A stretch of DNA of 64,000 nt from a virus. Its lineage: Duplodnaviria; Caudoviricetes. Of this stretch, positions 6,064 to 27,749 are shown in pieces (position 1 is the stretch's first letter; each line of letters starts with the position of its first letter). The notes beneath the pieces are model-generated. The model had not been told where the DNA came from. It made no database searches and worked only from the letters and a program-made list of their open reading frames with translations. Where the stretch lies: IMG/VR virus record IMGVR_UViG_3300047160_009226, positions 96,001 through 160,000 of that record. One strand, given 5' to 3'. The position numbers and the translations under genes are program-made.

Positions 6064-7256
6064 AGGCTCAACACATTAACCGTTTTAATCTCTGTCGATT
6101 TACCTTCCTCCTGAGTCTTATATCTAAGCGGATCGCCGATCGGATCAAGTGTTCTAATCCTAAGCATGATATCTTTATCTGATCTCTGATAATATTCCCG
6201 AAGTATACTATTATTAATGTAGTTATTCTGATGTACCTTTTGTGCCGGTTTATGATAGTGATGCAATAAAGTGATTCCAGTCACAGGACTCGTTCGATTC
6301 ACGCGTCCAAGCTTAGTTGCCTTCGCATAAAACGCATTATCTTCCCCACCCCATCCAAAGAACCGCTCGTCCATTCCTCCAATTCTTAGATAAAAATTCT
6401 TTTTAACTAAAAGGGATCCACCAACTGCTTGATTGGTAGTCAACGTTGAAGTCGCTTTAAGGTGACAATCAGGATACTTCTTACTTGATTCCTCATCAAG
6501 ATAAAGTATTTTTGCCCACGGTAACGCTATATCCTTTGTTCCCAATACCTTTATAGATTCTTTTACATAGTGTTTAGGCGTCAATAAATCACAGTCATGA
6601 AACAATATCAAATCATCTGGTGCAATCATAGCCCCACAATTAAATGCCCAACTCTTATTAAACATAAGACTTGAGTAAATAAACAAGTAACTGTCTACCA
6701 GTGGTTCTAACTCACACTGATGTACAGGGATTTTATCCTGTTCGACAATTATAATATAACAATCTATCGTTTGATCTCGAAGACACTTAATGCATTTTTT
6801 CAACCCATCCAATCGATTATCTTCCCGCCCTCTAAAAGCCATTACTACAGAAACTCTGTCATATATAGGAAGTATTTCGGGCTCCTTTTTCTTCTCTGCT
6901 AACTCTAACGGCGGCCCTATTTCCTTAACTTTCGACTCTCTTGACTTCACCACTAACTTAGTTAGTGATTTTTTTTCTTTCACTTTTCCTGCTTCTTCAA
7001 CCACCTTCTGAATAACAACAGGTTCTTTTTCATGGATTTCTGGTTCATGCTCAATGACTAATGACTGCCTCTCCTGAGATCCATCATTTGATTTAATCCT
7101 TTTTGGTAATGTTCTTCTGTAGAAAACAGGTACAGGAACTGAAGATCGATCAACCCTCAAAAAAGGAGCCCATGCCAAATCATCATCTAACAAGTAGACT
7201 TGAGTCGATCGCTCCCGACGAGGAGAAGGAAAATGATATGCTTGCCTTCGCGTCAT
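6060..7256 (-). CDS. GT2/GT7-type glycosyltransferase (galactosyltransferase C-terminal-like) with a Lys/Glu-rich N-terminal extension
   Basis: IIIVEQD, FNKSWAFNCG, FHDCDLL (DxD) and GGMDERFFGWGGEDNAF motifs. Confidence 0.85.
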   Translation of the reverse strand: MTRRQAYHFPSPRRERSTQVYLLDDDLAWAPFLRVDRSSVPVPVFYRRTLPKRIKSNDGSQERQSLVIEHEPEIHEKEPVVIQKVVEEAGKVKEKKSLTKLVVKSRESKVKEIGPPLELAEKKKEPEILPIYDRVSVVMAFRGREDNRLDGLKKCIKCLRDQTIDCYIIIVEQDKIPVHQCELEPLVDSYLFIYSSLMFNKSWAFNCGAMIAPDDLILFHDCDLLTPKHYVKESIKVLGTKDIALPWAKILYLDEESSKKYPDCHLKATSTLTTNQAVGGSLLVKKNFYLRIGGMDERFFGWGGEDNAFYAKATKLGRVNRTSPVTGITLLHHYHKPAQKVHQNNYINNSILREYYQRSDKDIMLRIRTLDPIGDPLRYKTQEEGKSTEIKTVNVLSL

Positions 7257-8245
7257 TTAGGCATCATAGTAAGGATAAATCTAACCCGCTCCTGCCACCC
7301 TTCGCTCTTGCCTCTTCGAATATCCTGATAAACTTCATTGAGACCTTCCATAATTGTTCGAATCAACACAGGAGAGTATTTCTTTTTAGCGATTTTATAA
7401 TCTTCTAATTGATAGCGATTCAACTTAATTTCTGTAGACACTAATGATTCACTCTCCTCTTCTTCCTCCTCATCATCAATATCTGGCTCCTCTTTATGAT
7501 CGTCATCTTCACCTGTCTGATTAATCCAACAGTATATCTTCTTGAAGATTCCATACCAATTGCTAAGCAATAAAATCGGCTCCAGTTGTTCCATCTCTTC
7601 CAGCAAAATAATAATATTACCGTAAGCAATCGCTCTTAAGGTGCTCCGAAGATCATCTCGCTCACCAGCCGCATAAGTGATCTCTTGCTCTGTGATCTTG
7701 CATGACTTAGAAAGAATGCTTAATGTCAGTACAGCGGATTCTACTTCTTCTGAAGACTTAACTCGAACAGATAGCTCCTTAATCATCTCCTGATCTAAAT
7801 GACATCCATTCGTTTTTAATCTCAGATCAACTAACTTAGCACGCTCCTTCACTCTTTTAGGAAATTTGCACTCCACAAACTGAAAGACAGGTCGAGCTAA
7901 CATCCCTTCCCAAGATGGCTCTTCTCCCTGAAAATTAACCGTCATGTAATTCTTACTGGCTGATATTTTAGCCAGGAACGGTTTCCAAAGCTTGTTATTC
8001 TTAAGCTTGCCATTAACTCGAACATCTATGAACCTGGCTCCCATCAAAGAGCCTTCTTCCCAAAGAGCCACAATCGACCTGACATCCTTCACCTCAAACT
8101 GTTCTCGAACATCCCATAAACCAGTCAGTCTCCCCATCTGCTCAACAATAATATCCTTCAGAACCTGATCATCACCAGTAATGAGGGTGAGTTTAGCATT
8201 CTTCTTAGTATCAGTGGAACGTTCAAAAAATTCACGAAATCTCAC
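7253..8245 (-). CDS. holA: DNA polymerase III delta subunit (HolA)-like
   Basis: TLITGDDQVLKDII N-terminus, SLMGARFIDV, a lid/collar-like C-half, size ~330 aa, and adjacency to a HolB-like gene. Confidence 0.55.
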   Translation of the reverse strand: MRFREFFERSTDTKKNAKLTLITGDDQVLKDIIVEQMGRLTGLWDVREQFEVKDVRSIVALWEEGSLMGARFIDVRVNGKLKNNKLWKPFLAKISASKNYMTVNFQGEEPSWEGMLARPVFQFVECKFPKRVKERAKLVDLRLKTNGCHLDQEMIKELSVRVKSSEEVESAVLTLSILSKSCKITEQEITYAAGERDDLRSTLRAIAYGNIIILLEEMEQLEPILLLSNWYGIFKKIYCWINQTGEDDDHKEEPDIDDEEEEEESESLVSTEIKLNRYQLEDYKIAKKKYSPVLIRTIMEGLNEVYQDIRRGKSEGWQERVRFILTMMPK

Positions 8246-8247
8246 AA

Positions 8248-9123
8248 CTAGCCTCTGGTTAGAATAACTTTTGAAATAGCATAAGTCTTAAAAAGTAACG
8301 TAGAAGACAACATTTTATTCATAAAACCACTTTGTGTGGTATTTCTCGCCTCCATTCCTACCAATCCTACTTCTACCCAGAACCGATTTCGATTTAATAC
8401 AGATGCAATCATTTGAATCAGCAAATCCCAGCAGGCAATCTGAGTCGATTCAGATGCTTCCTCCAATCGTGCAGTCCAAATCGCTAGAAAACTTTTTTTA
8501 AAATCTGATCCGATCAATACCGCTGACCAATCTCTATGCCATTCTTGAATCACGAATAGATTAAGATTCTCAGCGACATTCAAGTCTCCACCACACGCTT
8601 TAATTCTTAAATCATTCTCTTCTTTTCCCAGTCTGTTTAACCACCACTTAACTTCACTTTCGTCAGATGGACGAATCTTAAGTTGTAGTGACCTCGACAA
8701 AATAGTTGGTAATACCCTTCTCTCATTAGAAGTAGTAACGATCATTGAAAAATGATCTGGAGGTTCTTCGATAAGCTTAAGTAGAATTGGCATAACCACA
8801 TAATGTGGTCTGTGGATATAAGAAATGATTATAAACCGTCGATCCCAAATCGCAGGACAAGATGTTGCAAACTGTCTTAGATTACGTGCATCTTCAGCAG
8901 TTAGCTCTCTACCATCATATAGAATGAGATCTGGATGGATTCCCTGCCAAACCATCTCCTCAGCTTCTTGTCTTTCCTTGTCTACCGTATATTCCTCCAG
9001 AATCGCCTCGACAGTCCGGACAACTCCTGTCTGCTCAGTTCCACTCAGCAAAAGAACAGGATGTGAAGAAAGGCACTTCCTGATGTGTTCCTTTTCTAAG
9101 TTCTTAAAATATCTAAAATTCAT
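8248..9123 (-). CDS. holB: DNA polymerase III delta-prime (HolB)-like clamp loader subunit
   Basis: LLLSG (degenerate Walker A), HPDL, LLKLIEEPP, IVTTSNERRVLPTILSRS (SRC-like), ACGGDL. Confidence 0.85.
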   Translation of the reverse strand: MNFRYFKNLEKEHIRKCLSSHPVLLLSGTEQTGVVRTVEAILEEYTVDKERQEAEEMVWQGIHPDLILYDGRELTAEDARNLRQFATSCPAIWDRRFIIISYIHRPHYVVMPILLKLIEEPPDHFSMIVTTSNERRVLPTILSRSLQLKIRPSDESEVKWWLNRLGKEENDLRIKACGGDLNVAENLNLFVIQEWHRDWSAVLIGSDFKKSFLAIWTARLEEASESTQIACWDLLIQMIASVLNRNRFWVEVGLVGMEARNTTQSGFMNKMLSSTLLFKTYAISKVILTRG

Positions 9124-9166
9124 ATTAAACCTTTTTGCTTTAATAAAACTTCAATCTATCTAGAAA

Positions 9167-9850
9167 CTAATCTAACACCCCAGAGGCATGGCTCTTGCCA
9201 CCCTTAAACCGAATAGAAGAAACAATAGGATCAATCTTCCTAGCAGGACAATTGTACCACCAACATTGAGGACATTTATTAAGGCGAGGGATCAACTCAA
9301 CTAATCCCCTCTTTTGTTGCATAATATCCTGAGCCCATGAATCGGCCTCTTCCACCTCTTTTGACGTCGGATCAATTGTCTCCTGATCTGGATATCCAGG
9401 ATAGCAGCTAACCACTCTAACTTGACCCACCTCCGTAAAAAATCTGAAAACGTGTTGAACCATCAAAATTTGAAGAAACCTCTCAGCCTCAACTGCCTCC
9501 TCATCTCTGGGATCGTATTTCTTATTGCGAATAACCGTAACAACTCCACCAGTCACACTCGTTGAATCCCAGATCACCTGATGTGCTGTTAACAAGAACT
9601 TCCCAGTAGAAAAAGGAATATGAAGCCAAAAACTCTCTCCGTAAGGAAGTGCCTTGATTCCATTATCAGTACTTTCAATAAACACCCACCTGGAATGAAT
9701 TCCAGTAAAAAGAGCTTCATAGATGCTCTGTAATGGATCATAATCGCGTTCTGGCTTAACTCTATTGGTGTTGTTCTGTTCGTCCATCCACATAAACGGA
9801 CACCAGACTGCATCGAAAACACCCTTATCTGTGATCATGCCATTATGCAT
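9167..9850 (-). CDS. Cas4/AddB-like PD-(D/E)XK-fold protein, catalytic motif apparently degenerate
   Basis: N-terminal WCP plus C-terminal CPQCWWYNC give the 1+3 Cys staple pattern; no clear D..DxK motif. Confidence 0.45.
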   Translation of the reverse strand: MHNGMITDKGVFDAVWCPFMWMDEQNNTNRVKPERDYDPLQSIYEALFTGIHSRWVFIESTDNGIKALPYGESFWLHIPFSTGKFLLTAHQVIWDSTSVTGGVVTVIRNKKYDPRDEEAVEAERFLQILMVQHVFRFFTEVGQVRVVSCYPGYPDQETIDPTSKEVEEADSWAQDIMQQKRGLVELIPRLNKCPQCWWYNCPARKIDPIVSSIRFKGGKSHASGVLD

Positions 9851-10705: not shown

Positions 10706-12841
10706 TCATGGGGCAAAAATTTCCTGAACTGTTCTCCGCCTGTGTCGCTTCGCCTGTCGCGGATCGAATTTAAAATCACGAAAATCCTTCCCTGTCTTGA
10801 ATTTACTTACATGCTCTCGATACTCCTGATTATACTTTAAAAGTTGTTGTTCATGTCTATGCAACCAGATTTCACACTCCTTAACAATCTGAGGGAACAT
10901 CTGATCGACAATCTTCAACATATCAATCATCTCACTCATTTCTTCTTGAGTGGTCAAATCTGTAGCTGCAAACTGAATCTCCATCATAATAAAATTTGGA
11001 TAATTAATAGATACTTTAACATTAAAAAGATAGGGATTATAAGTTTCTCTCTTCGATGGTGCTGGCTCAAATCCAGGAGAATAACCACCGGTTGATTTTT
11101 GACTGGCAATGATCTTCTTGATCTCATTTTCAACCAACTTCCGAACTTCCACCTCCACTGTTTCAGAGAATTCTTTCACAGAACTAGTCATGTAAGTAGA
11201 AAAAGAATTACTCTGTCCAATATTCGCTTCGGCATAAGCCACCAAATCCCCTTTATCCCAGTTCACCTTGAAATTTTTGAATTGATGGATCTCATTTTCA
11301 ATGTCTACCATGAATTTTCGTACTGGACTTGGAGGAATATGCTCGTTTTCATACAACCAATTCGTAGTAACTTTCTTTATCTGATCATATTTACTGTCAT
11401 AATCTCTAAATACTTCGTTACAAAAAGTGTCATATCCATCAGGATCTCCAGCACATAAATTACACTCAATATTAAAGATAAAATTTACATAATCCCCATA
11501 AATATGGTTTCTGACAGGATCCACGTTAATCTCTCTAAAATAAAAATCTTTATCTGAAAGTGCCTCTCTTAAAGATCCTGCACCAGAACCCATATAAAGT
11601 TCAGAGATCTCACTCCCAAACTGATTCTGAGGGATATATACACGCATGTTACCTGACCAAAAAAACACCACCTCGTCGTCATCTTCCTCCCCATCGTAAT
11701 CAACAGAGCAATATATAAATCGATTGCGCCATGCATCATGTATCTGTCGAATTTCATTACGCCGTCGCTCGTTCTCTGCTTCTTGCCCCTTACCAGGGAC
11801 ACCTGTTGTATTACCTCTATCCAAATGATCTTCAAAAAATCGATTAAATAAGGTACTGTCATCACTATCGGAGTAGTCACCCCCTCTTCTCATAAACTCG
11901 TTCATTCTCCATCGATGTCCACCAGTAGTCTCTGCCTGTGTGATTCTTGCCCAATCTTGTACCTGCTCCTTAAAATCTGAACTCGGATTACCATAGACCT
12001 TTGTTTCTGGAATTGCAAGATCAAAACCGTCTGTTTCGTGAGTAAATCGTCGTAAACGTAATCGACTCAAAGGACGAATACCTGGAACATTCCGATCAGG
12101 ATCTGCAAAAATCTCATTTCTACCAGCGACCTGCTTTGGATTCAAAGACCATAAATCTTTATTCTTTACTAAATAAGCAATAGGTCCGCCATGCTTCATT
12201 TCATTAACACAACTATCCCATTCACCACTTCCAGGAGAGTGACACGACCGAATGTCAGGGTAATCTTCTTCTTCATCTCCTTTAAAGTCACTCATGCGAA
12301 TCACATCAAGAGGATGACGCGATATAATAATGGAATAACCATTCGGATCTCGCTCTCCTTGACTTTGACTCCACCAGTTTAAGTACTTTTTTGAGCCGGG
12401 GAGACGTCCCAGAGCCTTCCCTAAGTTAGTATACTGTACTTTTGATGGCGTACCTGGAGGAGCCTTCTCATGAGGAGGGACAACTTTATAAGCCTCTCCT
12501 TTGACCCAATCGATGCCGTCGAACTTTTTAACGCCCTGAGGATCCGTTAATTCCTCCACTGCCTGCTCTACCTCTTTCTGCATTGGACTTCTTAGAGGAA
12601 TTACAGTTCGATATATATTCTTGCCGAAGATATTCATAAAAGGAATCTTGTAATCAAACTTGCTCATTGCTTGTGAAGCAATATCCTGATCAATTGCTTC
12701 GCGTCGAAATAAATCTCGACTAACTACCAACGTACGTGCAAGACGATTAACTCTGGACACCGAAAGAATCCCTTTTATGAGTTCATTCTCTTCATCATCT
12801 CGATTTTTGATTGTAAGTAAGTTTTTCCATTCACAATCCAT
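10706..12841 (-). CDS. large hypothetical phage protein (711 aa)
   Basis: Long ORF. Conserved-looking core SRHPLDVIRMSDF..SCHSPG..IAYLV..RLRLRRF..AIPE..VYG; no function assigned. Confidence 0.8.
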   Translation of the reverse strand: MDCEWKNLLTIKNRDDEENELIKGILSVSRVNRLARTLVVSRDLFRREAIDQDIASQAMSKFDYKIPFMNIFGKNIYRTVIPLRSPMQKEVEQAVEELTDPQGVKKFDGIDWVKGEAYKVVPPHEKAPPGTPSKVQYTNLGKALGRLPGSKKYLNWWSQSQGERDPNGYSIIISRHPLDVIRMSDFKGDEEEDYPDIRSCHSPGSGEWDSCVNEMKHGGPIAYLVKNKDLWSLNPKQVAGRNEIFADPDRNVPGIRPLSRLRLRRFTHETDGFDLAIPETKVYGNPSSDFKEQVQDWARITQAETTGGHRWRMNEFMRRGGDYSDSDDSTLFNRFFEDHLDRGNTTGVPGKGQEAENERRRNEIRQIHDAWRNRFIYCSVDYDGEEDDDEVVFFWSGNMRVYIPQNQFGSEISELYMGSGAGSLREALSDKDFYFREINVDPVRNHIYGDYVNFIFNIECNLCAGDPDGYDTFCNEVFRDYDSKYDQIKKVTTNWLYENEHIPPSPVRKFMVDIENEIHQFKNFKVNWDKGDLVAYAEANIGQSNSFSTYMTSSVKEFSETVEVEVRKLVENEIKKIIASQKSTGGYSPGFEPAPSKRETYNPYLFNVKVSINYPNFIMMEIQFAATDLTTQEEMSEMIDMLKIVDQMFPQIVKECEIWLHRHEQQLLKYNQEYREHVSKFKTGKDFRDFKFDPRQAKRHRRRTVQEIFAP

Positions 12842-13230
12842 AACCCTGAAAGAAGAACTTTAATCTGATAATTACTCAACTGCTTTTTAATCAATCTTAA
12901 TCCACGATTCCCAATTCTTTCCTTTAAATCTTTATGCCATAGAAAGTATTCCTGATTTACTCTCGTACAAAAATCTTTCTTGTCTCCGTAAACTAATAAA
13001 ATAGTGACTGATGGAAGAATAAAAACTAATCCATAATATAGAAACTCATTCTCTTTAACTCGTGCCAGTTCAGACAGGCTAATCTCTACTAATTTTTCTA
13101 CATCCAAAAAATTACTGATCTTACGACGAGATACTCTTATATATCCGGTGCCAATCTGGACGCTTTTCTTGATAACCGAGAAACTCCCAGGTCCCCGATC
13201 CCGGTCGCATAGTAATGCAGTTCTTGCCAT
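12775..13230 (-). CDS. hypothetical protein; true start probably downstream of 13137
   Basis: Fills the gap between two large genes but overlaps both; start uncertain. Confidence 0.4.
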   Translation of the reverse strand: MARTALLCDRDRGPGSFSVIKKSVQIGTGYIRVSRRKISNFLDVEKLVEISLSELARVKENEFLYYGLVFILPSVTILLVYGDKKDFCTRVNQEYFLWHKDLKERIGNRGLRLIKKQLSNYQIKVLLSGLWIVNGKTYLQSKIEMMKRMNS

Positions 13231-15341
13231 GCCACTCTACTCGCTAACCGAGACTTAACAATCGACTCCTCCCCTATCCCTATACCGACCAATCTCGTCA
13301 AAAACTCACCAGCCGAACCATAATCCCCCCGCCGCATCGCCCTGCGGAAACCCAAGATGAAATGTCTGGCAGCCTGCCGATTTTTCCTGCTAGAAGACAC
13401 CTCAGTAAACTTAAACATGGGGTTATTTTTCATGTCATTCTGAAACTTCTGCATCTGCTCATCATCCGTAAAAGTCATCTTGATTCCCTGGTTACCAGGG
13501 AGAACCTCCGTCCGTCCATATTTCTGAAGACCCTTCACTTGCGTCATTGGATTTTCCAGAGTGATACTGGGATTTGGCGTAAAAGCCTGACTGGGATTCG
13601 TCACTGCCGGACCTGTCGTCTGTTGTCCTACCACATCGGCGGCGTTTCTTTCTTGTTCTCTCTTAAGCTTCTGTTTTCGCTGTACTATCGTTGGACGCAT
13701 CATCTCATCGTCAGTTTCAATGGGAATCGTCGTCGTTCCGCCACTTTGAGCACGTCTCCTACGGCCCCCTGTAGCAACCAAGTCACCTCTCCTGCTTGCC
13801 TTGACCTCGACACCACCCTTCTGCAACACCCGGACGATATCCTTCTTCAAATCCGAATCCTGAGTCAGAATCAATACACGTCCGTTGCCGATGTGGTCCA
13901 CCAGGTCAGGCTCCAGCGCTGAATCCCGTAAAACCTCTCGTACACGGTGGAGAATGGGAGGTATTCCTGGTCGTGGTGCATGGAATGGTGCCACCTCATC
14001 GAAGGATTGGGGAACTTGCCCGATCGACCGATCCAGATCCGGGGTTTCGTTCCGCATCAACGCAAAGACCGATTCGAAACGATCGGGTAGATTCGTATCT
14101 AAAATCAACCCAATTCCCTTCGCTCGCTCCATCGTCTTCCCATCGGGATCGTAAGGATTGCCCTTCACATAGTGAATCACCTGATCCGGGTCTCTGTAAA
14201 CCCGAATGAATGCCCAATCACCGTCGTTCTTCCACATAAGTGGACTTCTTAAACTGTTGGCTTCTTGACCGTCTTCATCCAGGGGTCTAATCCATATGGT
14301 ATTTCTGTTGCGTCGGTCAACAATCCCGCTAAAATCAGGCTTTGAATCTTCTCCACGAGATGCTTGATTTTTGAGAAAAATCTCCACCTCGTCACCCACC
14401 AGAATCGCTTCTCGCAAATCCTCAGTGGGCTCGGGGATCGGTCTTACAAACCTAGTCGGAAGCAACTGATTCGCTTGCCTTCGACTTGAAGTTTGTCTAT
14501 TAAACAAAATGTATTCTGTGCTATCTCGCATCACAACATACTCCCCATCAGGCTTCATGCGCTGTATTGGAACATTCTTGACAATCAGCCCGTCATAACC
14601 TTCATGCAGTAACTTCTTAGTAATCTCATCAGGTCTATGAGTGCCAAACTCTTGTTTCAGTTCAGTAAAATAGGCTTTCTCTCCAAGTGTTAATACATAA
14701 GGATTACTCATTGCGATGTTACCACTGATCACCTCGCTTCCATAAGTCTCTGCGATCTCCGGATTATCTGTCCAGTGCTGACCCACTGCAAACTGACTGG
14801 GAATTCTATTTTTTCTTGCCTTAACAGGATCGATCTCAATCCCTCGATAGAGCGTTCCATTAAAAGATTGACCAGTTTCTACAGCTTCTCTTTTCGACGA
14901 TTCTCTTTTTAAGGACTCACCATTTAATCCCACTTTGGCTTTCTTTAACAGTCTTGCCAAATTTTCACTCATGTTTTTATGAGTAGGCTTTATTTTGCTT
15001 AAATTGCGTGCCTTAATCCAGATATAGTGATCATGCTCATTGTCTGCTAAATCAGGCTCTGGCTTAATATCTCCATTAGCTACAAATCCTAAAAACTGAG
15101 CCGCTTTTCCTGCTTTAGTAGGAAAATCAATGCTAAATGGCATAAGATAAATTTCTAACCCTGTCTCCTCGAATACCTCTCGAACTGCTGCAAGTTCTGG
15201 TCTCTCACCCCCATCGATATGTCCGGCTGGAAACTCCCACTTTCCACCGTTACTCGAATCATCCTTGACACGACGGATCATCAAGAGATTGCTATCCCCA
15301 TCTATCACTGCAACAATACTAACCTTATACTCTTCACTCAT
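13137..15341 (-). CDS. multidomain protein: NUDIX hydrolase + ADP-ribosyltransferase-like (ART-PolyVal-type) + uncharacterised domains
   Basis: Perfect Nudix box GHIDGGERPELAAVREVFEETGL, followed by LYRG..GQHWTDNPEIAETYG..NPYVL..GYDGLIV..EYILFN. Confidence 0.8.
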   Translation of the reverse strand: MSEEYKVSIVAVIDGDSNLLMIRRVKDDSSNGGKWEFPAGHIDGGERPELAAVREVFEETGLEIYLMPFSIDFPTKAGKAAQFLGFVANGDIKPEPDLADNEHDHYIWIKARNLSKIKPTHKNMSENLARLLKKAKVGLNGESLKRESSKREAVETGQSFNGTLYRGIEIDPVKARKNRIPSQFAVGQHWTDNPEIAETYGSEVISGNIAMSNPYVLTLGEKAYFTELKQEFGTHRPDEITKKLLHEGYDGLIVKNVPIQRMKPDGEYVVMRDSTEYILFNRQTSSRRQANQLLPTRFVRPIPEPTEDLREAILVGDEVEIFLKNQASRGEDSKPDFSGIVDRRNRNTIWIRPLDEDGQEANSLRSPLMWKNDGDWAFIRVYRDPDQVIHYVKGNPYDPDGKTMERAKGIGLILDTNLPDRFESVFALMRNETPDLDRSIGQVPQSFDEVAPFHAPRPGIPPILHRVREVLRDSALEPDLVDHIGNGRVLILTQDSDLKKDIVRVLQKGGVEVKASRRGDLVATGGRRRRAQSGGTTTIPIETDDEMMRPTIVQRKQKLKREQERNAADVVGQQTTGPAVTNPSQAFTPNPSITLENPMTQVKGLQKYGRTEVLPGNQGIKMTFTDDEQMQKFQNDMKNNPMFKFTEVSSSRKNRQAARHFILGFRRAMRRGDYGSAGEFLTRLVGIGIGEESIVKSRLASRVAWQELHYYATGIGDLGVSRLSRKASRLAPDI

Positions 15342-15364: not shown

Positions 15365-15586
15365 TTATGTTCTCTTAGTAAGTACTGATTCAGTTATCGA
15401 TTTGATAAAGTCAAGTTGCCTCTTATCCTCAGCTGCAAGAACATCCAAATTATCTTGAATTGGATTTTCTCTACATGCCTCAACAAGATATAACAAACGA
15501 CTTTGATTGCTCAGACTTAATTGAAGTGCTGCAAGTGATGCTCTCAGTTGATTTGCTCGCTCATCTAAGTTCAATTGTTCTTTCAT
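15365..15586 (-). CDS. hypothetical helical protein
   Basis: 73-aa ORF coupled to its neighbours. Confidence 0.6.
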   Translation of the reverse strand: MKEQLNLDERANQLRASLAALQLSLSNQSRLLYLVEACRENPIQDNLDVLAAEDKRQLDFIKSITESVLTKRT

Positions 15587-17577
15587 CGAGCTGTCTGCTC
15601 TTGTGGTCCATACTGGAAAAAAGCATTCAAGTCTTGAATTAATTCTGTAGAAGTCCTATTTACATGATCTTGTAAGAATTCATCATTTGCTTGAAAAATA
15701 GTTGCAACCTGATTTGCGGAGAGCTTGTCTTTTTTCTCTGATAGATTTAACAGGTCAAATGCTTGTCTCAGCGGCCATGACATATCATCAAGAGAAACTC
15801 CTATTAAGAAATTTCTTGATTTTGGAAGAGATGACGTTCGTCCTCTGAATCTCAATCTTCTCCTCAAATCAAAGAGATTCGAAAGTTCCAAAAACTCTTT
15901 CCGATCTAGATCAACCAGGTTGCTACCTTCCTCATCAATGGAAACCATCTGTGTGCTTTGCTGCATTGCCATGTTATGAAGAATCTCAAAATACTTCGGT
16001 GTTAGTCTCTTGCATTCGATGTATAAATAGTCTGCATGTGCTGGTCCTGATCGCCCAATCTTTGCCCATCCGTCATCAACCAAAATGTCATAAGACTCAA
16101 TGTTTTCATATCCCATATCTTGAAGAGCATCTCTGTTTTTTTCTACACAATCCTTATGATCCCGACCACAAGAAAGTATCTTCCCTTCAGGGGATACAAA
16201 CCACGCTCTATCTTCAACCCAAGCCGGTTGTGAAGACCAGTCCGTCTGTGAAGCCATTCGCTTACTCACGATCACCGGCATTCGTCTTACATCACTAGAC
16301 CTCGACATACTTAAAATATCCGATCGATTATGCCATAGAAATTTATTAACATCCTGCATAGAATCAAAAAATTTAAAATCTTTCCACTGCAACTTATTCG
16401 TCTTACCGTCAACAAATAATACTACAGTTGTATTATCCATTATATTCAAGGAGGAGAGTATTTCCTGAACCTTACTAAAAATAGAGCTAGATAAAAAATA
16501 TGATTCTATACTAACTATATGACCACCATAACCAGGATGGACAAAATAACCAATCTTTGTCCACTTATCACCTACCAAAAGATATGCTATCTCATTTTGA
16601 TCAGCATCTGGATCAATTTCTTGAGCAACTTTGAACAATTCTGGATTAGATCCACAACCATCAGGTCCGTCATGCTCATGACCACAGTTATACACTCTCC
16701 CCTCAGGAGAGATTAACCACGCTCTATCGTCACCGGATGCTTTTCTACTTCCCTGTACTCTCAATTCTTTCATTAACTTCGGAACAGAATCAGCTTGTAA
16801 AAATTCATCTCTTGTTAATTCTGCATATCTATCCCCAATATTTATCAAAACAGCCGCGTTTCCTGTTCCAGAGAATAAACTTTGAGCCTCGTCCAGCCCT
16901 TTCTGACTTAATGACTTTGCATCAACAACAAACTCCTTTCCATAGGATGCGATTCGTACCCAACCAAAGTCTTTCACGAGTTTAGGGTTGTTGGTGCCAA
17001 AAATCTCTGGGTGTTCTTTCACAAACTGATCGTGATCATATCCTGCGTCGTGAACTTCACCATAAGGACTGATCCACCATGACCTCTTATTGGGATATAT
17101 CGCTTTCATCCATTCGGATGCTTGCGACGCCATGACAGATGCTCTAATTCCTGTCTGATCTTTGAATAAGTTTTCAAGCAAGTCTATTTGAGAATCTGCC
17201 CAAATGAAATCATGATGAGAAATATACCCAATCTTATTAAGAGTAGAAATGAAAATCTTGTGTTCGCCACCCAGTGACTTATAGATCTGTTGACAGGCTT
17301 CAAGTTGTGCTCTTGTAATGCTATGACAGTGGACTACATACTCATAACCCAAATACGCAACCCTAATCCAATTCAGAGTCAGAGCTTTATTGATGTCAGC
17401 CCATTCCCCGAAGATCTTAGGATGTTCCTTCAGGAACTTGACGTGATTATGCCCTACATCATAGATTTTTCCCTGCGGATCAACCCACCAGGAACGCTTC
17501 TCAGGATGCTTTTCCTTCATGGCGTCCGATGGACTGGTAGCCAATTTCAAGTAGCTGTAATCCGTAGAGACAATCAT
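15583..17577 (-). CDS. protein with four tandem copies of a ~120-aa domain (R-[SA]-W-x2-[SD]-P-x-G..H..W-x-[RK]-[IV])
   Basis: Repeats begin KRSWWVDPQG, KRSWWISPYG, DRAWLISPEG and DRAWFVSPEG. Confidence 0.85.
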   Translation of the reverse strand: MIVSTDYSYLKLATSPSDAMKEKHPEKRSWWVDPQGKIYDVGHNHVKFLKEHPKIFGEWADINKALTLNWIRVAYLGYEYVVHCHSITRAQLEACQQIYKSLGGEHKIFISTLNKIGYISHHDFIWADSQIDLLENLFKDQTGIRASVMASQASEWMKAIYPNKRSWWISPYGEVHDAGYDHDQFVKEHPEIFGTNNPKLVKDFGWVRIASYGKEFVVDAKSLSQKGLDEAQSLFSGTGNAAVLINIGDRYAELTRDEFLQADSVPKLMKELRVQGSRKASGDDRAWLISPEGRVYNCGHEHDGPDGCGSNPELFKVAQEIDPDADQNEIAYLLVGDKWTKIGYFVHPGYGGHIVSIESYFLSSSIFSKVQEILSSLNIMDNTTVVLFVDGKTNKLQWKDFKFFDSMQDVNKFLWHNRSDILSMSRSSDVRRMPVIVSKRMASQTDWSSQPAWVEDRAWFVSPEGKILSCGRDHKDCVEKNRDALQDMGYENIESYDILVDDGWAKIGRSGPAHADYLYIECKRLTPKYFEILHNMAMQQSTQMVSIDEEGSNLVDLDRKEFLELSNLFDLRRRLRFRGRTSSLPKSRNFLIGVSLDDMSWPLRQAFDLLNLSEKKDKLSANQVATIFQANDEFLQDHVNRTSTELIQDLNAFFQYGPQEQTAR

Positions 17578-19484
17578 CTCTGATAGCTCGTATGCCGATA
17601 GCTTGCCGTCCTATAAGGAACGTTATGATCAATTATTACCTTCATCAGTTCTGTCGAATGTTTAAGGACCAAAGGTGCTCCCTTACCAGCAACACGAGTT
17701 CTGATAACTCGTGCCAATTCCTGCCGATCTATCGAAGAAACCCGACGATTTCCCACGTCCACGCTGACTAATAAAAGAGTACCCAACTTAGCTGCTATTT
17801 TCTCTTTTCTATCTAGATCCTCATCGAAAACACTGACATCTATTTGACCACGACCTTGACACTGACCACAACATCGGTCTCCCCTCTCACCTGTCCCGTG
17901 GCAACAAGCACAGATCTCTCTATGACGCCTCAATCCTGATTTCCGTTTGGACGTCAAATCTCGAGATTTCTCAAACAACCGCTGAACCCGAGGAAGAAGT
18001 CGTATAGCTAATTTTTTTCCAATATCTAAGTAACCAGCAATATCTTTATATGTAATTGATTCCGCCGTCATTCCTTTCTCTTTATATAACCTCACAAAAT
18101 CTTCAAGATCAGAATGAGAATAAGACCTTATATCATCACGATAGCCAGCCGACTTTCTGGAAGCCCCCCATCTCCTCTCAGGAGCCCGTCCAGCAGCTCC
18201 AAAATGAACCTGAAAACAACGATTGGCTTCCTGATTCGTTCTTTCTTTTGGCTCTTCCTCATGTCGTTTCTTTGGATCGCTGATCTTTTGAATCGCTTCA
18301 TAGACCTTACGCCAGTCTATATCAGGAAACTCATCTTCTATGAACTGCTGAACATGATCAGAAGAAATCTCACTGGGAAGCATATCACCTGCAAAATGAT
18401 CCAGGCACTGATCCACAGCTTCTGCGATCTCGTCCTCTACCTCGATCTTACGACTGACCCGACTCCTGCCCTCCCGCTTGTCTTTCATGGTTCTAAGATA
18501 GCGATCCATCGTCGGGTTTTCCCACATATTGATCACAGTATTGAACCAGTCTCCACCTGGAGCTGAGTACTCTTGAATTGTCTCTTTTTCTCGCGTTGCT
18601 GAAACTGGCGACAGATTTCCTCCTTCAAACTCTTCAGAAAGTGGTGTTCCTGACTCTTCAGCGATTTCATTCATCGCATCGTTCCATGCTTCATCCAACT
18701 GACCAGGATCTGGATTCACTCCCTTGCTATCCAAATCCAGAAGCCAAGACTCAAAAACATCGGGATCTTGAAGTTGATCCAGCAGGTCTTCGTCATATAA
18801 GGAGTTTTGAGACTTATATTCCTGTAAAAAATCCCTTGCCATTGTCAAAAGTTCTGAATCTACTTCTCTCTCCTTGGCAACACGACCGGACTCCCTTGCA
18901 CGCCAAGCTTGATCTTGACTGTAATCAATCGGTTCTCCGGGTGTTAACTGAGATTCTTCGTTGAACTCCGATTGAGGCGGTACAGCTTGATCCAATGGTT
19001 TTTGAATGACTGGCATTCCAGTTTGATCCCGTCGCCGTGCTTCCTCCTCTAGAGGTGCCGCCATCTTGGCCAAAGCCCGTGCCGCAACCCCTCTCTCCTG
19101 GGTAGAAACCCACTTGAGCTTCTTGGCTAATCGTAACAGCGACGGAGATCTGTACCGATTGGCATTGAGCCGTGCTGCTTCAGCGAGTTGCAATGCAAAT
19201 CGGCGCGGGTCCATAGGACCTCGACCTCTATGTGCTTTTCTGAATCCAGCACTGGTGGCATGTTCTTTGGTATGTGTCTTCCATTCCTTGATCTTTTCCT
19301 TGATGTCTTCCTCTGACATTTCAGCGTCTTTAGACTTGCTGGAAGCGATCCGAAGATAGAGATCTCCTCCCTGATCTAGCATAGACGCTTCAACAGATTC
19401 AGGATAAGACTCAAACATGGTATCTAAAGATGCTGCTTCAGGGAGTGAGAAAATCTCACTCGCTTCGATTCTACGCCGAGTCAT
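17574..19484 (-). CDS. large hypothetical protein with a DnaJ-type CxxCxGxG zinc-finger pair
   Basis: CACCHGTG and CGQCQGRG motifs near the C-terminus. Likely start is ATG 19484 (MTRRRIEASE); the ORF track extends to 19508. Confidence 0.75.
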   Translation of the reverse strand: MTRRRIEASEIFSLPEAASLDTMFESYPESVEASMLDQGGDLYLRIASSKSKDAEMSEEDIKEKIKEWKTHTKEHATSAGFRKAHRGRGPMDPRRFALQLAEAARLNANRYRSPSLLRLAKKLKWVSTQERGVAARALAKMAAPLEEEARRRDQTGMPVIQKPLDQAVPPQSEFNEESQLTPGEPIDYSQDQAWRARESGRVAKEREVDSELLTMARDFLQEYKSQNSLYDEDLLDQLQDPDVFESWLLDLDSKGVNPDPGQLDEAWNDAMNEIAEESGTPLSEEFEGGNLSPVSATREKETIQEYSAPGGDWFNTVINMWENPTMDRYLRTMKDKREGRSRVSRKIEVEDEIAEAVDQCLDHFAGDMLPSEISSDHVQQFIEDEFPDIDWRKVYEAIQKISDPKKRHEEEPKERTNQEANRCFQVHFGAAGRAPERRWGASRKSAGYRDDIRSYSHSDLEDFVRLYKEKGMTAESITYKDIAGYLDIGKKLAIRLLPRVQRLFEKSRDLTSKRKSGLRRHREICACCHGTGERGDRCCGQCQGRGQIDVSVFDEDLDRKEKIAAKLGTLLLVSVDVGNRRVSSIDRQELARVIRTRVAGKGAPLVLKHSTELMKVIIDHNVPYRTASYRHTSYQR

Positions 19485-19485
19485 G

Positions 19486-19587
19486 TCAGTATCCCTTCCT
19501 CTGATCACAGGAGGTGCAATCAGGTATACCGTCAGGTTTACCGCTTATCACACACTTTTCTCGTTTCTGACAAGTGAAAACTTTCAC
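19486..19587 (-). CDS. possible 33-aa Cys-rich microprotein
   Basis: GTG start; VKVFTCQKREKCVISGKPDGIPDCTSCDQRKGY; its stop is one base from the next ATG (TGA C ATG). Confidence 0.3.
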   Translation of the reverse strand: MKVFTCQKREKCVISGKPDGIPDCTSCDQRKGY

Positions 19588-19717: not shown

Positions 19718-20650
19718 TCAGTTTTTTGACAGTTCACTTTCTCTTATCCTCCTAAGACGTTGAGCTTCTCTCATCTTCTGTTTAGTCTTTTCACTATATT
19801 TCCTACCAAGTCGAGCCTTTGACATTTTCTGCTTACTCTCTTCACTGTGTTTCTTACCAACATTAGCTTCCCTCATTTTCTGCCGTGTTTCTTCACTAGC
19901 TTTTTTACCTATGTGAGCCTCTGACATGTTCTTTTTATGCTCTTCGCTAAACCTCTTGCCAATATGAGCCTCTGACATCTTCTTTTTACGCTCTTCACTA
20001 AACCTCTTACCAAGTCGGCATGCTGACATTTTCTTCTTATGCTCTTCACTTTGTTGCTTAATACGTTGAGATTCTGATAGATTCCTCCTATGTTCTTCAC
20101 TAAGTTTTTTACCAAGTTGAGCTTCTCTCATTTTCTGTCGTGTTTCTTCACTGACTTTTTTACCTCTATGAGCTTCTCTCATTTTCTGCCGTGTCTTTTC
20201 GTTGGCTTTCATACCTCGATGAGTTTCACTGATTTTTCTCAATGTTTCTTCTGACAAACGTTCTGATGAAGGCTGTATATTGTAACCAAACCGTGAATTC
20301 GCTGCTTTAAATCTCAAAAGGTACTCATCCTCAATAATTTTTAACAAATTCTTTTTATACACATACTCTAGAGTTTCATACACAAACGCTCCGGACCCAT
20401 GCCTATTCCACGCCTCTTGAAGTCGATGAGATTTATGTTTATTCTTAATCAAATCACGTCTATGTTGGCCCCAACGTTTAGAGAGGTTAACAGTACTACC
20501 AATATACATTTTTCCGTTTACCAGACACCGAATCTGGTATATTCCCATCTTAGATTTCTGATCATCATAAAGAGCTAAAATTTGATCCTTGCGATACCGA
20601 ATCTCCTTGGCCATCTCACAAAACAAGGGTCGAGAAACTTGATTAGTCAT
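19718..20650 (-). mobile_element. free-standing GIY-YIG homing endonuclease with NUMOD3 repeats
   Basis: [24 protein letters not shown] catalytic module followed by ten 17-aa SEExxxKM repeats. Confidence 0.9.
19745..20254 (-). repeat. ten degenerate 51-bp NUMOD3 tandem repeats
   Basis: [17 protein letters not shown] through [17 protein letters not shown], counted manually. Confidence 0.85.
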
Positions 20651-23100: not shown

Positions 23101-24615
23101 TTAGTCCATTATATATCCGTGTATGTAAGTTCCACTATTATAAATGGTCACTGTTTGTGATACAGTGTATGCATTATATAACCCTTCCACTATAGTGAGC
23201 CAATGCAAGCCAATTTGGAGATTGCTACTAGGAGAATACTTATTCCACATTAAGTCTATTTGTGGAGAATTTATCTGAGATAGAGTGTCATTTGAATAAC
23301 TATTCGCAGTAGCTGCATCCAGTTGAACACCATGATACATTGAAGCACTCTGAGCATTCATGTTAACGATGATACTGCTATCTACTTCTATAAATTGGCC
23401 ACCTCCTATCCCTATATTTCCTGCGCTGCTACCTATTAGGAAGTAAAATCGAGCATTAGCATCATCACCGTTAACTGCACGATATATAATTACACCATTA
23501 GCGACTGTGAAATTCCAACTAGTAGCACCCGTATATTGAAACTTTATCTTCCGAGGTACCTGATTATAAGCATTCCAAAGTAATCGTGCGGTACTTGAAT
23601 CAGTTCCATGTCCAGCCGTACCATATATGTACAAAGTACCCACATAACGCCAATTCTGATTGCCTCCTTGAAAAAGCATACCCGCAGTAGGTCCCATTAG
23701 AGCAGTGGCTCTGGTATTATTGCCACTCCATGCTGTACCAAGACCTAAACTAGCTGTCCCATTCAAGTTATTCTGAATAAACACATCATATACAGTGTTA
23801 AGAGGATAAGATGCTAGACTTAGACTATAACCAGCATTTGGTAGCAAAATATCTTCATAGTCACTGATATTGCTATTCCAAAGTGTAATATGATTGCCAT
23901 TACATGGGAGATAATAAAGAGTAGTTGCAGCAGTAATATCAGATAACGAAACTGGATTAGCGGAATCATAAGTCAGTCTGCCACAAGCACGGGGATTGGC
24001 TATAGTTCCAAATGGGGTTCCATATGGTGTAAAACCGCCTTTAATATTAGCATTCAAATCACGGGCTCTGAAACTTGGATATCCAGCTACCGGTGTCAAG
24101 TCCACCAAACCAGCGACTTGGATAAGTGGAGATGCAAATCCTGTTGGACTAAAAGTAAATGCACTAGTACCACCGAAAACACCGCTATTATTAAACTGTA
24201 TATATGTGTTAGAACCTGCTGATGGAGTACTCGGCAGTGGCTGCCAACTAGAATCGCCTCTCAGAAATGTGTTAATACTAGCTGTACCAGTACCTAAGCG
24301 AGCTGTTGGAACAGTGCCTGATGTAAAATAAGTAGCGTTCAAATTAGTGAGACCAGATCCAGAGCCTACGAAGTTTGTAGCAGAAAGAGTGTTAGTACTG
24401 TTATTAAAAGTAAGACCTGAGTTTCCGGATAGAGCCCCAGCTGAATTATATAGTACCTGACCACTGCTTCCTGGAATAGTTAAACTTGGTACTACCCAAG
24501 TGCCATCTCCTCTTAAATACGTAGAAGTGCTTACAGTACCAGAACCCAGCCTGGCAGTCGGCATTATGCCGGCGGTAATGTTAGAAGCATTTAATGAAGT
24601 GAGGTCAATAGCCAT
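23101..24615 (-). CDS. short tail fibre / receptor-binding protein 3
   Basis: LNASN..TARLGSGT..LRGDxxW repeats and the shared GRLT..YYxP..WNAYNQ tip domain. Likely start is ATG 24615 (MAIDLTSL). Confidence 0.8.
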   Translation of the reverse strand: MAIDLTSLNASNITAGIMPTARLGSGTVSTSTYLRGDGTWVVPSLTIPGSSGQVLYNSAGALSGNSGLTFNNSTNTLSATNFVGSGSGLTNLNATYFTSGTVPTARLGTGTASINTFLRGDSSWQPLPSTPSAGSNTYIQFNNSGVFGGTSAFTFSPTGFASPLIQVAGLVDLTPVAGYPSFRARDLNANIKGGFTPYGTPFGTIANPRACGRLTYDSANPVSLSDITAATTLYYLPCNGNHITLWNSNISDYEDILLPNAGYSLSLASYPLNTVYDVFIQNNLNGTASLGLGTAWSGNNTRATALMGPTAGMLFQGGNQNWRYVGTLYIYGTAGHGTDSSTARLLWNAYNQVPRKIKFQYTGATSWNFTVANGVIIYRAVNGDDANARFYFLIGSSAGNIGIGGGQFIEVDSSIIVNMNAQSASMYHGVQLDAATANSYSNDTLSQINSPQIDLMWNKYSPSSNLQIGLHWLTIVEGLYNAYTVSQTVTIYNSGTYIHGYIMD

Positions 24616-24641
24616 GAATAATATCTCATAATATAGTCTAA

Positions 24642-26174: not shown

Positions 26175-26186
26175 TAATCTCCTCCA

Positions 26187-27710: not shown

Positions 27711-27749
27711 AAATTATCCTCTCACTTCCGAGTATGTTATATTATTCAA

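Follow-up and report, generated by a model that had tools for sequence, protein, structure and literature searches.

A Nudix protein from the replication block of an uncultured phage, with a variable slot that holds a divergent ADP-ribosyltransferase-fold cassette

The 734-residue protein P0001, encoded in a 64,000-nucleotide phage window (the whole stretch of DNA that was analysed), joins a MutT-like Nudix hydrolase domain to a small cassette predicted to have the ADP-ribosyltransferase (ART) fold. In the reading that we consider probable, a constant Nudix domain and core, encoded in a replication block, enclose a slot that is filled here by a captured, divergent ART serving as an accessory activity. 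With the same degree of confidence, and as part of that reading, we regard the product as one multi-domain enzyme and not as the polyprotein named in the initial annotation. From the N terminus, the order is Nudix domain, linker, ART cassette, linker, conserved core, linker and C-terminal region (Table 1), a collinear architecture common to 18 to 24 homologue clusters. Judged from sequence, the fusion appears to combine known parts in a new arrangement, and its domain architecture would be new.

Table 1. Coordinates, in the window, of the 734-residue protein, its parts and its conserved neighbours
Feature	Position	Strand	Description
Whole ORF, P0001	13137..15341	(-)	Open reading frame, 734 aa
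Nudix hydrolase domain, compact MutT-like	14967..15323	(-)	Residues 7-125; Pfam PF00293, PHROG 1198
Nudix box	15156..15224	(-)	Residues 40-62; every signature position intact
Arg-rich linker 1, border of the cassette slot	14883..14921	(-)	Residues ~141-153, ...S-S-K-R-E-A...
Predicted ART-fold cassette	14472..14882	(-)	Residues 154-290; predicted model, structure matches, sequence relatives
Family-specific core	13752..14459	(-)	Residues 295-530; 60 invariant columns
C-terminal region	13140..13751	(-)	Residues 531-734
Two conserved upstream partner genes	15583..19508	(-)	644 aa and 664 aa, co-oriented, short gaps or overlaps
Conserved downstream block	7253..9850	(-)	227-aa protein, clamp-loader delta-prime (PF13177), 330-aa delta-like gene

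The N-terminal domain matches the Pfam NUDIX family at 65.9 bits (cutoff 21.1; E=4.7e-18) and its PHROG at E=3.3e-18. Its Nudix box, described as intact from the outset, fits GX5EX7REUXEEXGU exactly (G40-x5-E46-x7-R54-E55-V56-x-E58-E59-x-G61-L62), and R54, E55, E58 and E59 are invariant across the family. The subfamily search proposed in the initial annotation placed the domain closest to compact MutT/NudG/NudI-type NTP pyrophosphohydrolases and not to ADP-ribose pyrophosphatases. The family profile finds MutT-related 3grn as its best solved structure (4e-15), together with NudG-type CTPase, MutT and NudI, and the alignments with 3grn, 2rrk (3e-11), 5x1x (6e-11) and 6dt3 (1e-9) cover the full length of the ~130-aa domain. 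ADP-ribose pyrophosphatases rank below these compact enzymes of MutT/NudG/NudI/RppH type and align only from about their own residue 47, and the N-terminal extension typical of them is absent here. The best NCBIfam match is MutT, below cutoff, and the scores of the MutT 8-oxo-dGTPase equivalogs fall well short (TIGR00586, 45.0 bits versus 97.9; PRK10776, 40.4 versus 148); the ‘MutT’ label carried by homologues in source databases is a generic one. The NudE and NadM-type models are further away still (20.5 bits versus 169 and 23.6 versus 449, respectively). An activity on ADP-ribose nevertheless stays compatible with these shortfalls against ADP-ribose pyrophosphatase, NudE and NadM models.

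For the second domain, which had been proposed to be ART-like, both structure prediction and sequence comparison point to that fold. The AlphaFold (AF2) model of the cassette has a pLDDT of 91 and six strands in the canonical order, and its best Foldseek matches are diphtheria toxin, PARPs and SAIP, within structure match lists made up almost entirely of ARTs that also include NatT/MbcT and ParT. In an independent all-against-all structure alignment (VIA), the best rows are again mostly ART-fold (SAIP, Z 6.5; NatT, 5.8; MbcT, 5.7; PARP2, 5.4; diphtheria toxin, 5.3; ParT, 5.3; AcrIF11, 4.8), but Z-scores of 5 to 6.5 are middling and can reflect merely a common arrangement of elements, so the case for an ART fold is carried by the uniform match list together with sequence homology. 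A fold search of AFDB Swiss-Prot was weak, with PARP2, MbcT and PARP3 amid low-probability uL22 rows, and a search of the ART profile against the sequences of solved structures gave nothing significant. The neighbours of the cassette in the embedding atlas are ART-PolyVal clusters. Taking model and homology together, residues ~154-290 very probably form a real ART fold.

The more specific match to the ART-PolyVal pattern fared differently at two levels: homology bears it out, but the score of the module against the Pfam model does not. Alone, the cassette reaches 17.1 to 17.4 bits against ART-PolyVal PF18760 (E about 0.01), under the cutoff of 31.2, and its close Y-R-G relatives likewise remain under it. 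Among the 32 relatives of the module found by phmmer, 11 match PF18760 (best E=1.2e-16). One of the proteins compared, P0041, forms a bridge, with a match of 3.3e-12 to the ART module studied here and 35.5 bits to PF18760, above the gathering cutoff, and hhalign relates the Y-R-G clade to the PF18760-positive Y-H-G group with 99.7% probability (E=1.5e-25). These sequence relationships indicate that the cassette is a divergent relative of the ART-PolyVal family. All of the ART-like motifs listed in the initial annotation are present (YRG 165-167, G-Q-H-W-T-D 187-192, A-x-x-Y-G 197-201, N-P-Y 213-215, G-Y-D-G 248-251 and E-Y-I-L-F 276-280), and they are not chance matches because they coincide with conserved columns of the 32-member domain alignment.

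Across about 24 homologue clusters, the Nudix domain, the conserved core and the C-terminus are constant, and the ART slot between them is found in four states: present, absent, replaced by an unrelated cassette, or interrupted. The core tree requires at least 7 slot-state changes among 18 sequences, and the states are mixed even inside a clade of at least 66% identity. Pfam searches of the alternative cassette (P0004:150-300 and P0012:140-285) gave nothing above threshold, and direct DNA repeats on either side of the ART cassette, sought as a trace of recombination, amounted to short chance-level matches only. The ART thus appears to be an optional, swappable insert between Nudix and core, and because the slot varies while Nudix and core do not, the function of the Nudix domain is likely to be independent of the ART.

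This bears directly on the coupled writer and trimmer proposed in the initial annotation, in which the ART modifies a target or frees ADP-ribose from NAD+ and the Nudix domain then cuts the pyrophosphate bond, so that a phosphoribosyl mark is left or products or signals derived from ADP-ribose are destroyed. Both domain calls behind that proposal were right, the two domains do share one polypeptide, and six orthologues of 71-83% identity keep the active-site signatures of both; a genome-wide search also located the sole ART module and the sole Nudix domain of the genome in this ORF. A 2H phosphoesterase, a domain type able to process ADP-ribose-derived phosphates, accompanies the same ART module in two other carriers, P0024 and P0029, and this association favours the coupling idea. 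As an obligate design, however, the proposal does not hold up well: seven homologues (P0007, P0010, P0013-P0016 and P0018) keep Nudix and core without any ART, other members carry an unrelated cassette in its place, the ART of P0009 is interrupted by another insert, and the Nudix profile favours compact NTP-type enzymes, with the low NudE and NadM-type scores given above. We consider the coupled writer and trimmer unlikely. A variant that accepts a hot-swappable effector slot in a replication-associated protein, and has the R-H-D ART and the Nudix domain act sequentially on one substrate, is one to which we give little credence; under it, an ADP-ribosylated protein, nucleic acid or nucleotide, for example, could be trimmed to a phosphoribosyl form beyond the reach of host macrodomain-type erasers.

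The source is an uncultured phage of ~200 kb (record length 200,689 bp). The 734-aa protein has no paralogues in the window or the genome, and a full-length tblastn search against 50,697 phage records returned one weak Nudix match as the only trace of a cultured-phage relative. Its Pfam matches to SBDS_N and phiKZ_IP are short and sub-threshold and were set aside as noise. A 3175-aa ORF had suggested an N4-like phage carrying a virion RNA polymerase; this was ruled out, given the record length and because the ORF is paralogous to three neighbours of ~510 aa, the four proteins being fibre-like with a match to YadA-head repeats.

In five related genomes, the Nudix gene lies within a replication block that extends from a split PolA to the clamp loader, with the head and tail genes elsewhere. 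Homologues of the two upstream partners, the longer of which has internal repeats, directly precede the Nudix gene in the loci L001, L002 and L003; profile searches found no family matches for either, and a sequence search with the 644-aa neighbour against solved structures gave nothing significant. The downstream block, in which the delta-prime gene has a Pfam match at E=8.3e-16, keeps an identical order in L001-L003. This setting, outside the virion block, weakens the earlier suggestion of an injected module, although, in a jumbo phage, a position in the replication block falls short of proving that expression is early or middle. Like the polyvalent proteins described by Iyer et al. 2017, P0001 unites several unrelated effector domains (the Nudix domain, the ART and no fewer than three other modules); the virion-packaging or conjugation context that belongs to the same description is replaced here by replication genes.

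The R-x-A linkers noted in the initial annotation were confirmed in part. The protein contains 11 R-x-A motifs versus 3.7 expected, a count reached in 2 of 5000 shuffles; its enrichment is the highest among ORFs of the window, and the adjacent 664-aa repeat ORF comes second. At three domain borders, linkers predicted to be disordered contain Arg-rich R-R-x-A motifs, and two of these are conserved (residue 288 in 12 of 18 and residue 529 in 14 of 17 homologues); the R-x-A at 151 is kept in only three of the nine homologues that have residues there. However, over half of the excess falls in the C-terminal helices: six of the 11 motifs lie within these Arg/Ala-rich elements, and residues 1-640 hold 5 versus 2.7 expected, which is not significant.

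It is against these data that we weigh a virion-packaged polyvalent effector, which would enter the capsid, be cleaved at the Arg-rich R-x-A linkers by the prohead protease and be ejected into the host with the DNA as Nudix, ART and other fragments. The roughly 3-fold enrichment, the border motifs and the second rank of the neighbouring repeat ORF would suit such processing, and phage ARTs and Nudix enzymes are frequently head-packaged, according to PMC9503650. Moreover, the closest ART modules (50-62% identity) ride on MuF head-protein fusions (P0019, which also bears a separate canonical ART toxin domain, P0024 and P0025) and on LPD-bearing giant polyvalent proteins (LPD38 in P0033), and this association with head-packaged proteins keeps the packaging reading alive. 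It nonetheless seems improbable to us. The conserved replication block of the five genomes has no adjoining portal, MuF, protease or capsid genes, domain profile searches of the 734-aa protein found no MuF, portal, LPD, MPTase or vRNAP fusion domains, and the motif excess is concentrated where helix composition is rich in Arg and Ala. Proteolytic processing itself would be a step beyond what can be read from the sequence.

The predicted active site of the cassette consists of R166 in strand 1, H189 in strand 2, Y200 and D250 at the start of strand 5, with E276 in strand 6. Measured against the H-Y-D active site that PMC5512222 defines for N4-like/Tox-ART-HYD2 ARTs, the strand-5 Asp is retained (D250 directly precedes the model strand 102-113), but the canonical strand-1 His aligns with R166 in hhalign and the strand-2 Tyr is replaced by H189. 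Across the 32 members, position 166 is Arg in 24, His in seven and Gln in one (P0027), position 189 is Tyr in 19, His in eight, Phe in four and Trp in one, and Y200 and D250 are each present in 32/32; in the 21-member Y-R-G clade, R166, Y200, D250 and E276 are all invariant. The strand-2 aromatic position (189) and the second Tyr (200) are 11 residues apart, in agreement with the Y-x10-Y pattern of diphtheria toxin/PARP-type ARTs. Because two of the three canonical residues are substituted (R for H and H for Y), ART activity as such, and transferase as opposed to NADase chemistry, are uncertain. Going by these alignments, the clade would constitute a new R-variant subfamily of the known polyvalent-protein ART family. 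That the cassette instead degrades NAD+ (as a NADase or phosphorylase of the RES/MbcT/NatT kind) or binds NAD/ADPr while being catalytically dead is very doubtful: the RES-type NAD+ degraders NatT and MbcT do stand among its best structural matches, and the loss of both canonical His and Tyr, with even Gln at the strand-1 position of one relative, would fit, but the four residues invariant in the Y-R-G clade argue for a maintained active site, the homology is to H-Y-[EDQ] ARTs that modify macromolecules, and NADase-type ARTs are reported to be under-represented in viruses (PMC9503650).

The core is preceded by a conserved R-R-x-A-N-Q-L-L-P-T-R linker and consists of a small beta-barrel (~300-392), a highly conserved stretch modelled with low confidence (~392-453) and a small alpha/beta unit (~460-525). 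Family profiles, a fold search, the embedding atlas and a profile search of solved structures yielded no match for it. The C-terminal region comprises an R-R-R-R-A linker, a long helix, a small domain and then a confidently modelled, Arg/Ala-rich helical bundle (655-734). For residues 286-734 together, the AF2 model has an overall pLDDT of 62, and a fold assignment was rejected, the only matches being generic ACT/ferredoxin-like and helical-hairpin ones at Z 6-7.5 among 316 chains with Z>=5. The core could serve as a virion-targeting module.

The favoured reading, an accessory ART in a slot of a constant Nudix protein, can then be put as follows. The constant unit would be the N-terminal compact MutT-like Nudix domain with the family-specific C-terminal core, and we infer that it is expressed together with the genes of the replication block and that its substrate is a nucleoside-diphosphate-X compound, of either (d)NTP or RNA 5'-end type. 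A slot bounded by Arg-rich linkers would have been refilled repeatedly in evolution and, in this phage and its closest relatives, would hold a small ART, divergent within the polyvalent-protein (N4-like, H-Y-D) group. Its nearest copies are carried by head proteins with a MuF fusion and by giant polyvalent proteins, and this pool of effectors is therefore the probable source of the captured cassette. We infer that it ADP-ribosylates a host macromolecule using NAD+, as an accessory host-takeover or counter-defence activity similar to T4 ModA/ModB; cooperation with the Nudix domain would be possible and is not required.

Phage ARTs and Nudix enzymes are recognised players in the conflict with bacteria over NAD+ and ADP-ribose, and this locus may show such an effector module taken up by a gene of the replication block, away from virion proteins. 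An Arg-for-His ART subfamily that the Pfam model misses is likely to be under-annotated in metagenomes. Near-identical natural proteins that bear the ART (such as P0001 and P0002), lack a cassette (P0007 and P0010) or have a different one (P0008 and P0012) provide a ready comparison for the contribution of the ART and its cooperation with the Nudix domain. If the two cooperate, the protein would be a compact system that writes and then converts a mark; if they do not, it would clearly exemplify the shuffling of effector modules at linker sites.

Among known systems, the closest to the cassette is ART-PolyVal PF18760 (N4-like ART, Tox-ART-HYD2; Iyer et al. 2017, PMC5512222), which is homologous and shares the strand order, the strand-5 Asp and the motifs G-x-[YH]-[WF]-[TS], x-Y-G, N-P and G-[HY]-D-G-L-I-V. 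The cassette differs from it by Arg for the strand-1 His throughout the close clade, His for the strand-2 Tyr here and an extra invariant strand-6 Glu, and by its host protein, a replication-block Nudix protein and not a virion or conjugation polyvalent protein. Diphtheria toxin and the PARP catalytic domains, both H-Y-E ARTs, are the best Foldseek matches (1tox, E=1.6e-3, probability 1.0) at about 17-20% identity; in contrast to them, the module of about 135 aa lacks translocation or regulatory domains and carries Arg in place of His and Asp in place of Glu. T4 ModA and ModB are produced once infection has begun and stay out of the virion, and with Alt they are NAD+-using ARTs that modify host proteins (PMC5512222 and PMC9503650); the mode of ModA and ModB is the one proposed here, but the T4 enzymes belong to the R-S-E clade, share only the fold and stand alone without a Nudix fusion. 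With MutT/NudG/NudI-type enzymes, the Nudix domain has in common the full-length ~130-aa alignment and the intact box, and it differs in being fused to about 600 further residues and in scoring far under all NCBIfam equivalog cutoffs. PMC5512222, PMC7824862 and PMC9503650 describe phage Nudix proteins as free-standing in most cases or joined to head proteins, and their available portions contain no mention of an ART-Nudix fusion. The nearest parallels in those portions are the system of PMC7824862 (2021) and the head-fused T4 NudE-like Nudix of PMC9503650, which likewise place a partner with ADP-ribose chemistry and a Nudix domain in one jumbo-phage polypeptide; in the protein described here, that partner is a predicted ART, the Nudix domain lies outside the NudE/NadM clade, and not every family member has the pairing.

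The target protein is encoded on a linear viral record of 200,689 bp, estimated to be 91% complete, of which the window spans bases 96001-160000, and it combines a Nudix domain, an ADP-ribosyltransferase (ART) cassette, a core and a C-terminal region. The intact Nudix box reported in the initial annotation is confirmed, with every signature position present (G40, E46, R54-E55-V56, E58-E59 and G61-L62); the domain has a strong Pfam match and also matches PHROG 1198 (3.3e-18), and the catalytic residues are invariant across 14 family members. The closest full-length matches to the family Nudix profile are compact MutT-related, NudG, MutT, RppH-like and NudI enzymes (4e-15 to 1e-9), with ADP-ribose pyrophosphatases ranking lower and aligning only past their N-terminal extension, and none of the NCBIfam equivalog cutoffs is approached. 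G+C content is 0.41 in the Nudix, 0.42 in the ART cassette, 0.51 in the core and 0.49 at the C-terminus, with a window mean of ~0.43.

The proposed ART-PolyVal identity of the second domain falls short on direct scoring, where isolated residues 150-295 stay below the Pfam cutoff (E ~0.01, 17 bits vs 31.2) while nevertheless covering most of the profile, and it holds through homology. Searched exhaustively with phmmer, residues 140-310 retrieved 37 representatives, many within proteins of 1100-2800 residues, and among 32 aligned domain copies Pfam assigns PF18760 to 11 (best E=1.2e-16), DUF3990 to three and the PARP catalytic domain to two; all close relatives with the Y-R-G motif miss the cutoff. 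The groups are bridged by P0041, another carrier of the module, which matches the target module at 3.3e-12 (phmmer) and PF18760 with 35.5 bits, and profile-profile alignment of the Y-R-G clade (n=21) with Y-H-G members (n=7) gives 99.7% probability (E=1.5e-25). Atlas embeddings likewise group the module with ART-PolyVal clusters. An AlphaFold model from the 32-sequence alignment (pLDDT 91, pTM 0.84) retrieves diphtheria toxin as the top PDB match in Foldseek (E=1.6e-3, probability 1.0), followed by PARPs and other diphtheria-like toxins, and in a second, independent structural alignment against 48,161 representative chains nearly all matches are ARTs (Z: SAIP 6.5, NatT 5.8, MbcT 5.7, PARP2 5.4, diphtheria toxin 5.3, ParT 5.3, AcrIF11 4.8). 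These Z values are modest, and the case for an ART fold is made by the uniformity of the match list together with the sequence links; with the Pfam match to the Nudix, the initial reading of both domains in one ORF is thus upheld. The fourth structural match (Z 5.5) is 9k3a_B, a cryo-EM chain of the cyanophage A4 'pre-ejectosome', for which the aligned range is very wide (469-1594), so that the similarity could be scattered; a genuine match would place an ART-like domain within an ejection protein.

Word-indexed and profile searches gave a family of ~24 clusters with similarity to the protein outside its Nudix, in which every full-length member has a Nudix domain, and tblastn against 50,697 phage records found no cultured-phage counterpart of the whole protein. 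In the family alignment the Nudix, core residues 295-530 (60 invariant columns) and the C-terminal region are constant, and the slot between Nudix and core is variable (see table). The alternative cassette, ~130-150 aa without a Pfam match, occupies the same slot (alignment columns ~170-500; residues 150-300 in P0004), and in P0009 the first ~15 and last ~15 ART residues remain around it. On the core tree the slot states require at least seven changes and are intermixed inside a clade of at least 66% identity, from which we infer that the ART is a recently shuffled accessory and that the Nudix is independent of it. One core segment, among the most conserved (many invariant columns, e.g. G-N-P-x-D-x-D and T-P-D), has an AlphaFold pLDDT of less than 50, which could reflect either a role in binding a partner or too shallow an alignment.

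Features of the target protein, its family and the surrounding window
Feature	Position	DNA strand	Detail
Target ORF	13137-15341	-	single open frame, 734 codons
Nudix domain	residues 7-125	-	PF00293, E=4.7e-18, 65.9 bits vs cutoff 21.1
R166	strand 1, canonical His position		R24 / H7 / Q1 of 32
H189	strand 2		Y19 / H8 / F4 / W1 of 32
Y200	11 residues past 189		invariant, 32 members
D250	immediately ahead of strand 5		invariant, 32 members
E276	strand 6		26/32; invariant within Y-R-G clade
Conserved core segment	residues ~392-453 (~13980-14165)	-	
Slot: ART cassette only			P0001 (target), P0002, P0003, P0005, P0006
Slot: empty			P0007, P0010, distant members P0013-P0018
Slot: unrelated cassette without family match			P0008, P0011, P0012
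Slot: ART and other cassette together			P0004
Slot: ART with middle swapped for other cassette			P0009
711-aa ORF	10706-12841	-	no family match
151-aa ORF	12775-13230	-	no family match
664-aa ORF	15583-17577	-	internal repeats
GIY-YIG-type homing endonuclease	19718-20650	-	PHROG 314, E=5.7e-40
3175-aa ORF and three consecutive ~510-aa ORFs	23101-37277	-	paralogues

The gene lies in a replication block, not in a head/tail block: four fibre paralogues and a homing endonuclease are found upstream of it and a clamp-loader delta-prime gene downstream, and the window also encodes RNR, DnaB, helicases and a split PolA. Gene order is shared by four relatives (31-71% identity): first DnaB/PolA, then a few ORFs without annotation, a 644-like gene, the Nudix fusion, a 227-like gene, the delta-prime gene and a delta-like one, with glycosyltransferases after these. 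The homing endonuclease, between the fibre array and the conserved 644/664/Nudix block, marks one of several places where the order departs from the relatives. Within the array the ~510-aa ORFs share 47-49% mutual identity, and the 3175-aa ORF shares internal repeats and its C-terminal ~330 aa with them and has a YadA-head repeat match; this paralogy and the repeat suggest a fibre gene array instead of a virion RNA polymerase, which had been considered for the long ORF. The 664-aa ORF directly upstream of the target gives multiple offset matches to shorter ORFs of one relative's locus (L003), and in relatives its homologues, or fusions of these to the 644-like gene, stand ahead of the Nudix gene. 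On the other side, the 151-aa ORF overlaps the target's 3' end by 94 nt in another frame and probably either starts further downstream or is not a gene, and the position of the 711-aa ORF is held in P0006's genome by a 739-aa MmeI-type methyltransferase gene.

The initial annotation had described a polyprotein with RxA linkers between domains and proposed that Nudix and ART act as a coupled writer and trimmer or as an injected anti-defence module. The linkers stand in part: R-x-A is three-fold enriched (11 vs 3.7 expected; the count is matched in 2 of 5000 shuffles) and Arg-rich R-R-x-A motifs occur at the domain borders 151, 288 and 529, of which 288 and 529 are conserved and fall within low-confidence stretches of a second AlphaFold model, whereas 151 is not conserved. 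Six of the 11 R-x-A sites lie in Arg/Ala-rich terminal helices. Such motifs are compatible with candidate protease sites and equally with plain flexible basic linkers. The 664-aa ORF is the second most R-x-A-enriched of the window (7 vs 1.9 expected). Both the coupled-enzyme and the injected-polyprotein readings are possible but disfavoured, because the ART cassette is facultative, the Nudix is of the NTP type and the synteny is that of a replication block.

The carriers of the nearest module copies (50-62% identity) are the MuF-fused P0019, P0024 and P0025, the LPD38 polyvalent protein P0033 and unannotated giants; P0019 additionally bears a canonical ADPrib_exo_Tox domain. These carriers indicate that the module belongs to a pool of mobile effectors travelling on head-packaged proteins, from which a host protein of another type probably acquired it here. 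A 2H phosphoesterase (2'-5' RNA ligase superfamily) occurs in two unrelated carriers of the R-type module (P0024:604-720 and P0029:1028-1113), a pairing that hints at a recurrent link to the processing of ADP-ribose-derived or RNA-end phosphates.

In the available text of three studies (PMC5512222, PMC7824862, PMC9503650), ARTs are the commonest modifying domain of polyvalent proteins, Nudix domains usually stand alone or are joined to head proteins, and no mention of an ART-Nudix fusion was found. The families themselves are known; what is new is the domain architecture and an active-site variant. The latter emerges when the model strands are mapped onto the 32-member alignment (see table). 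Maintenance of the active-site residues favours an active enzyme, which may act as an ADP-ribose transferase or purely as an NAD+ degrader. In the definition of Iyer et al. 2017 (PMC5512222), the polyvalent-protein ART has a strand-1 His, a strand-2 Tyr and a strand-5 Asp; in contrast to this H-Y-D ART-PolyVal family, the target module is an R-[Y/H]-D variant.
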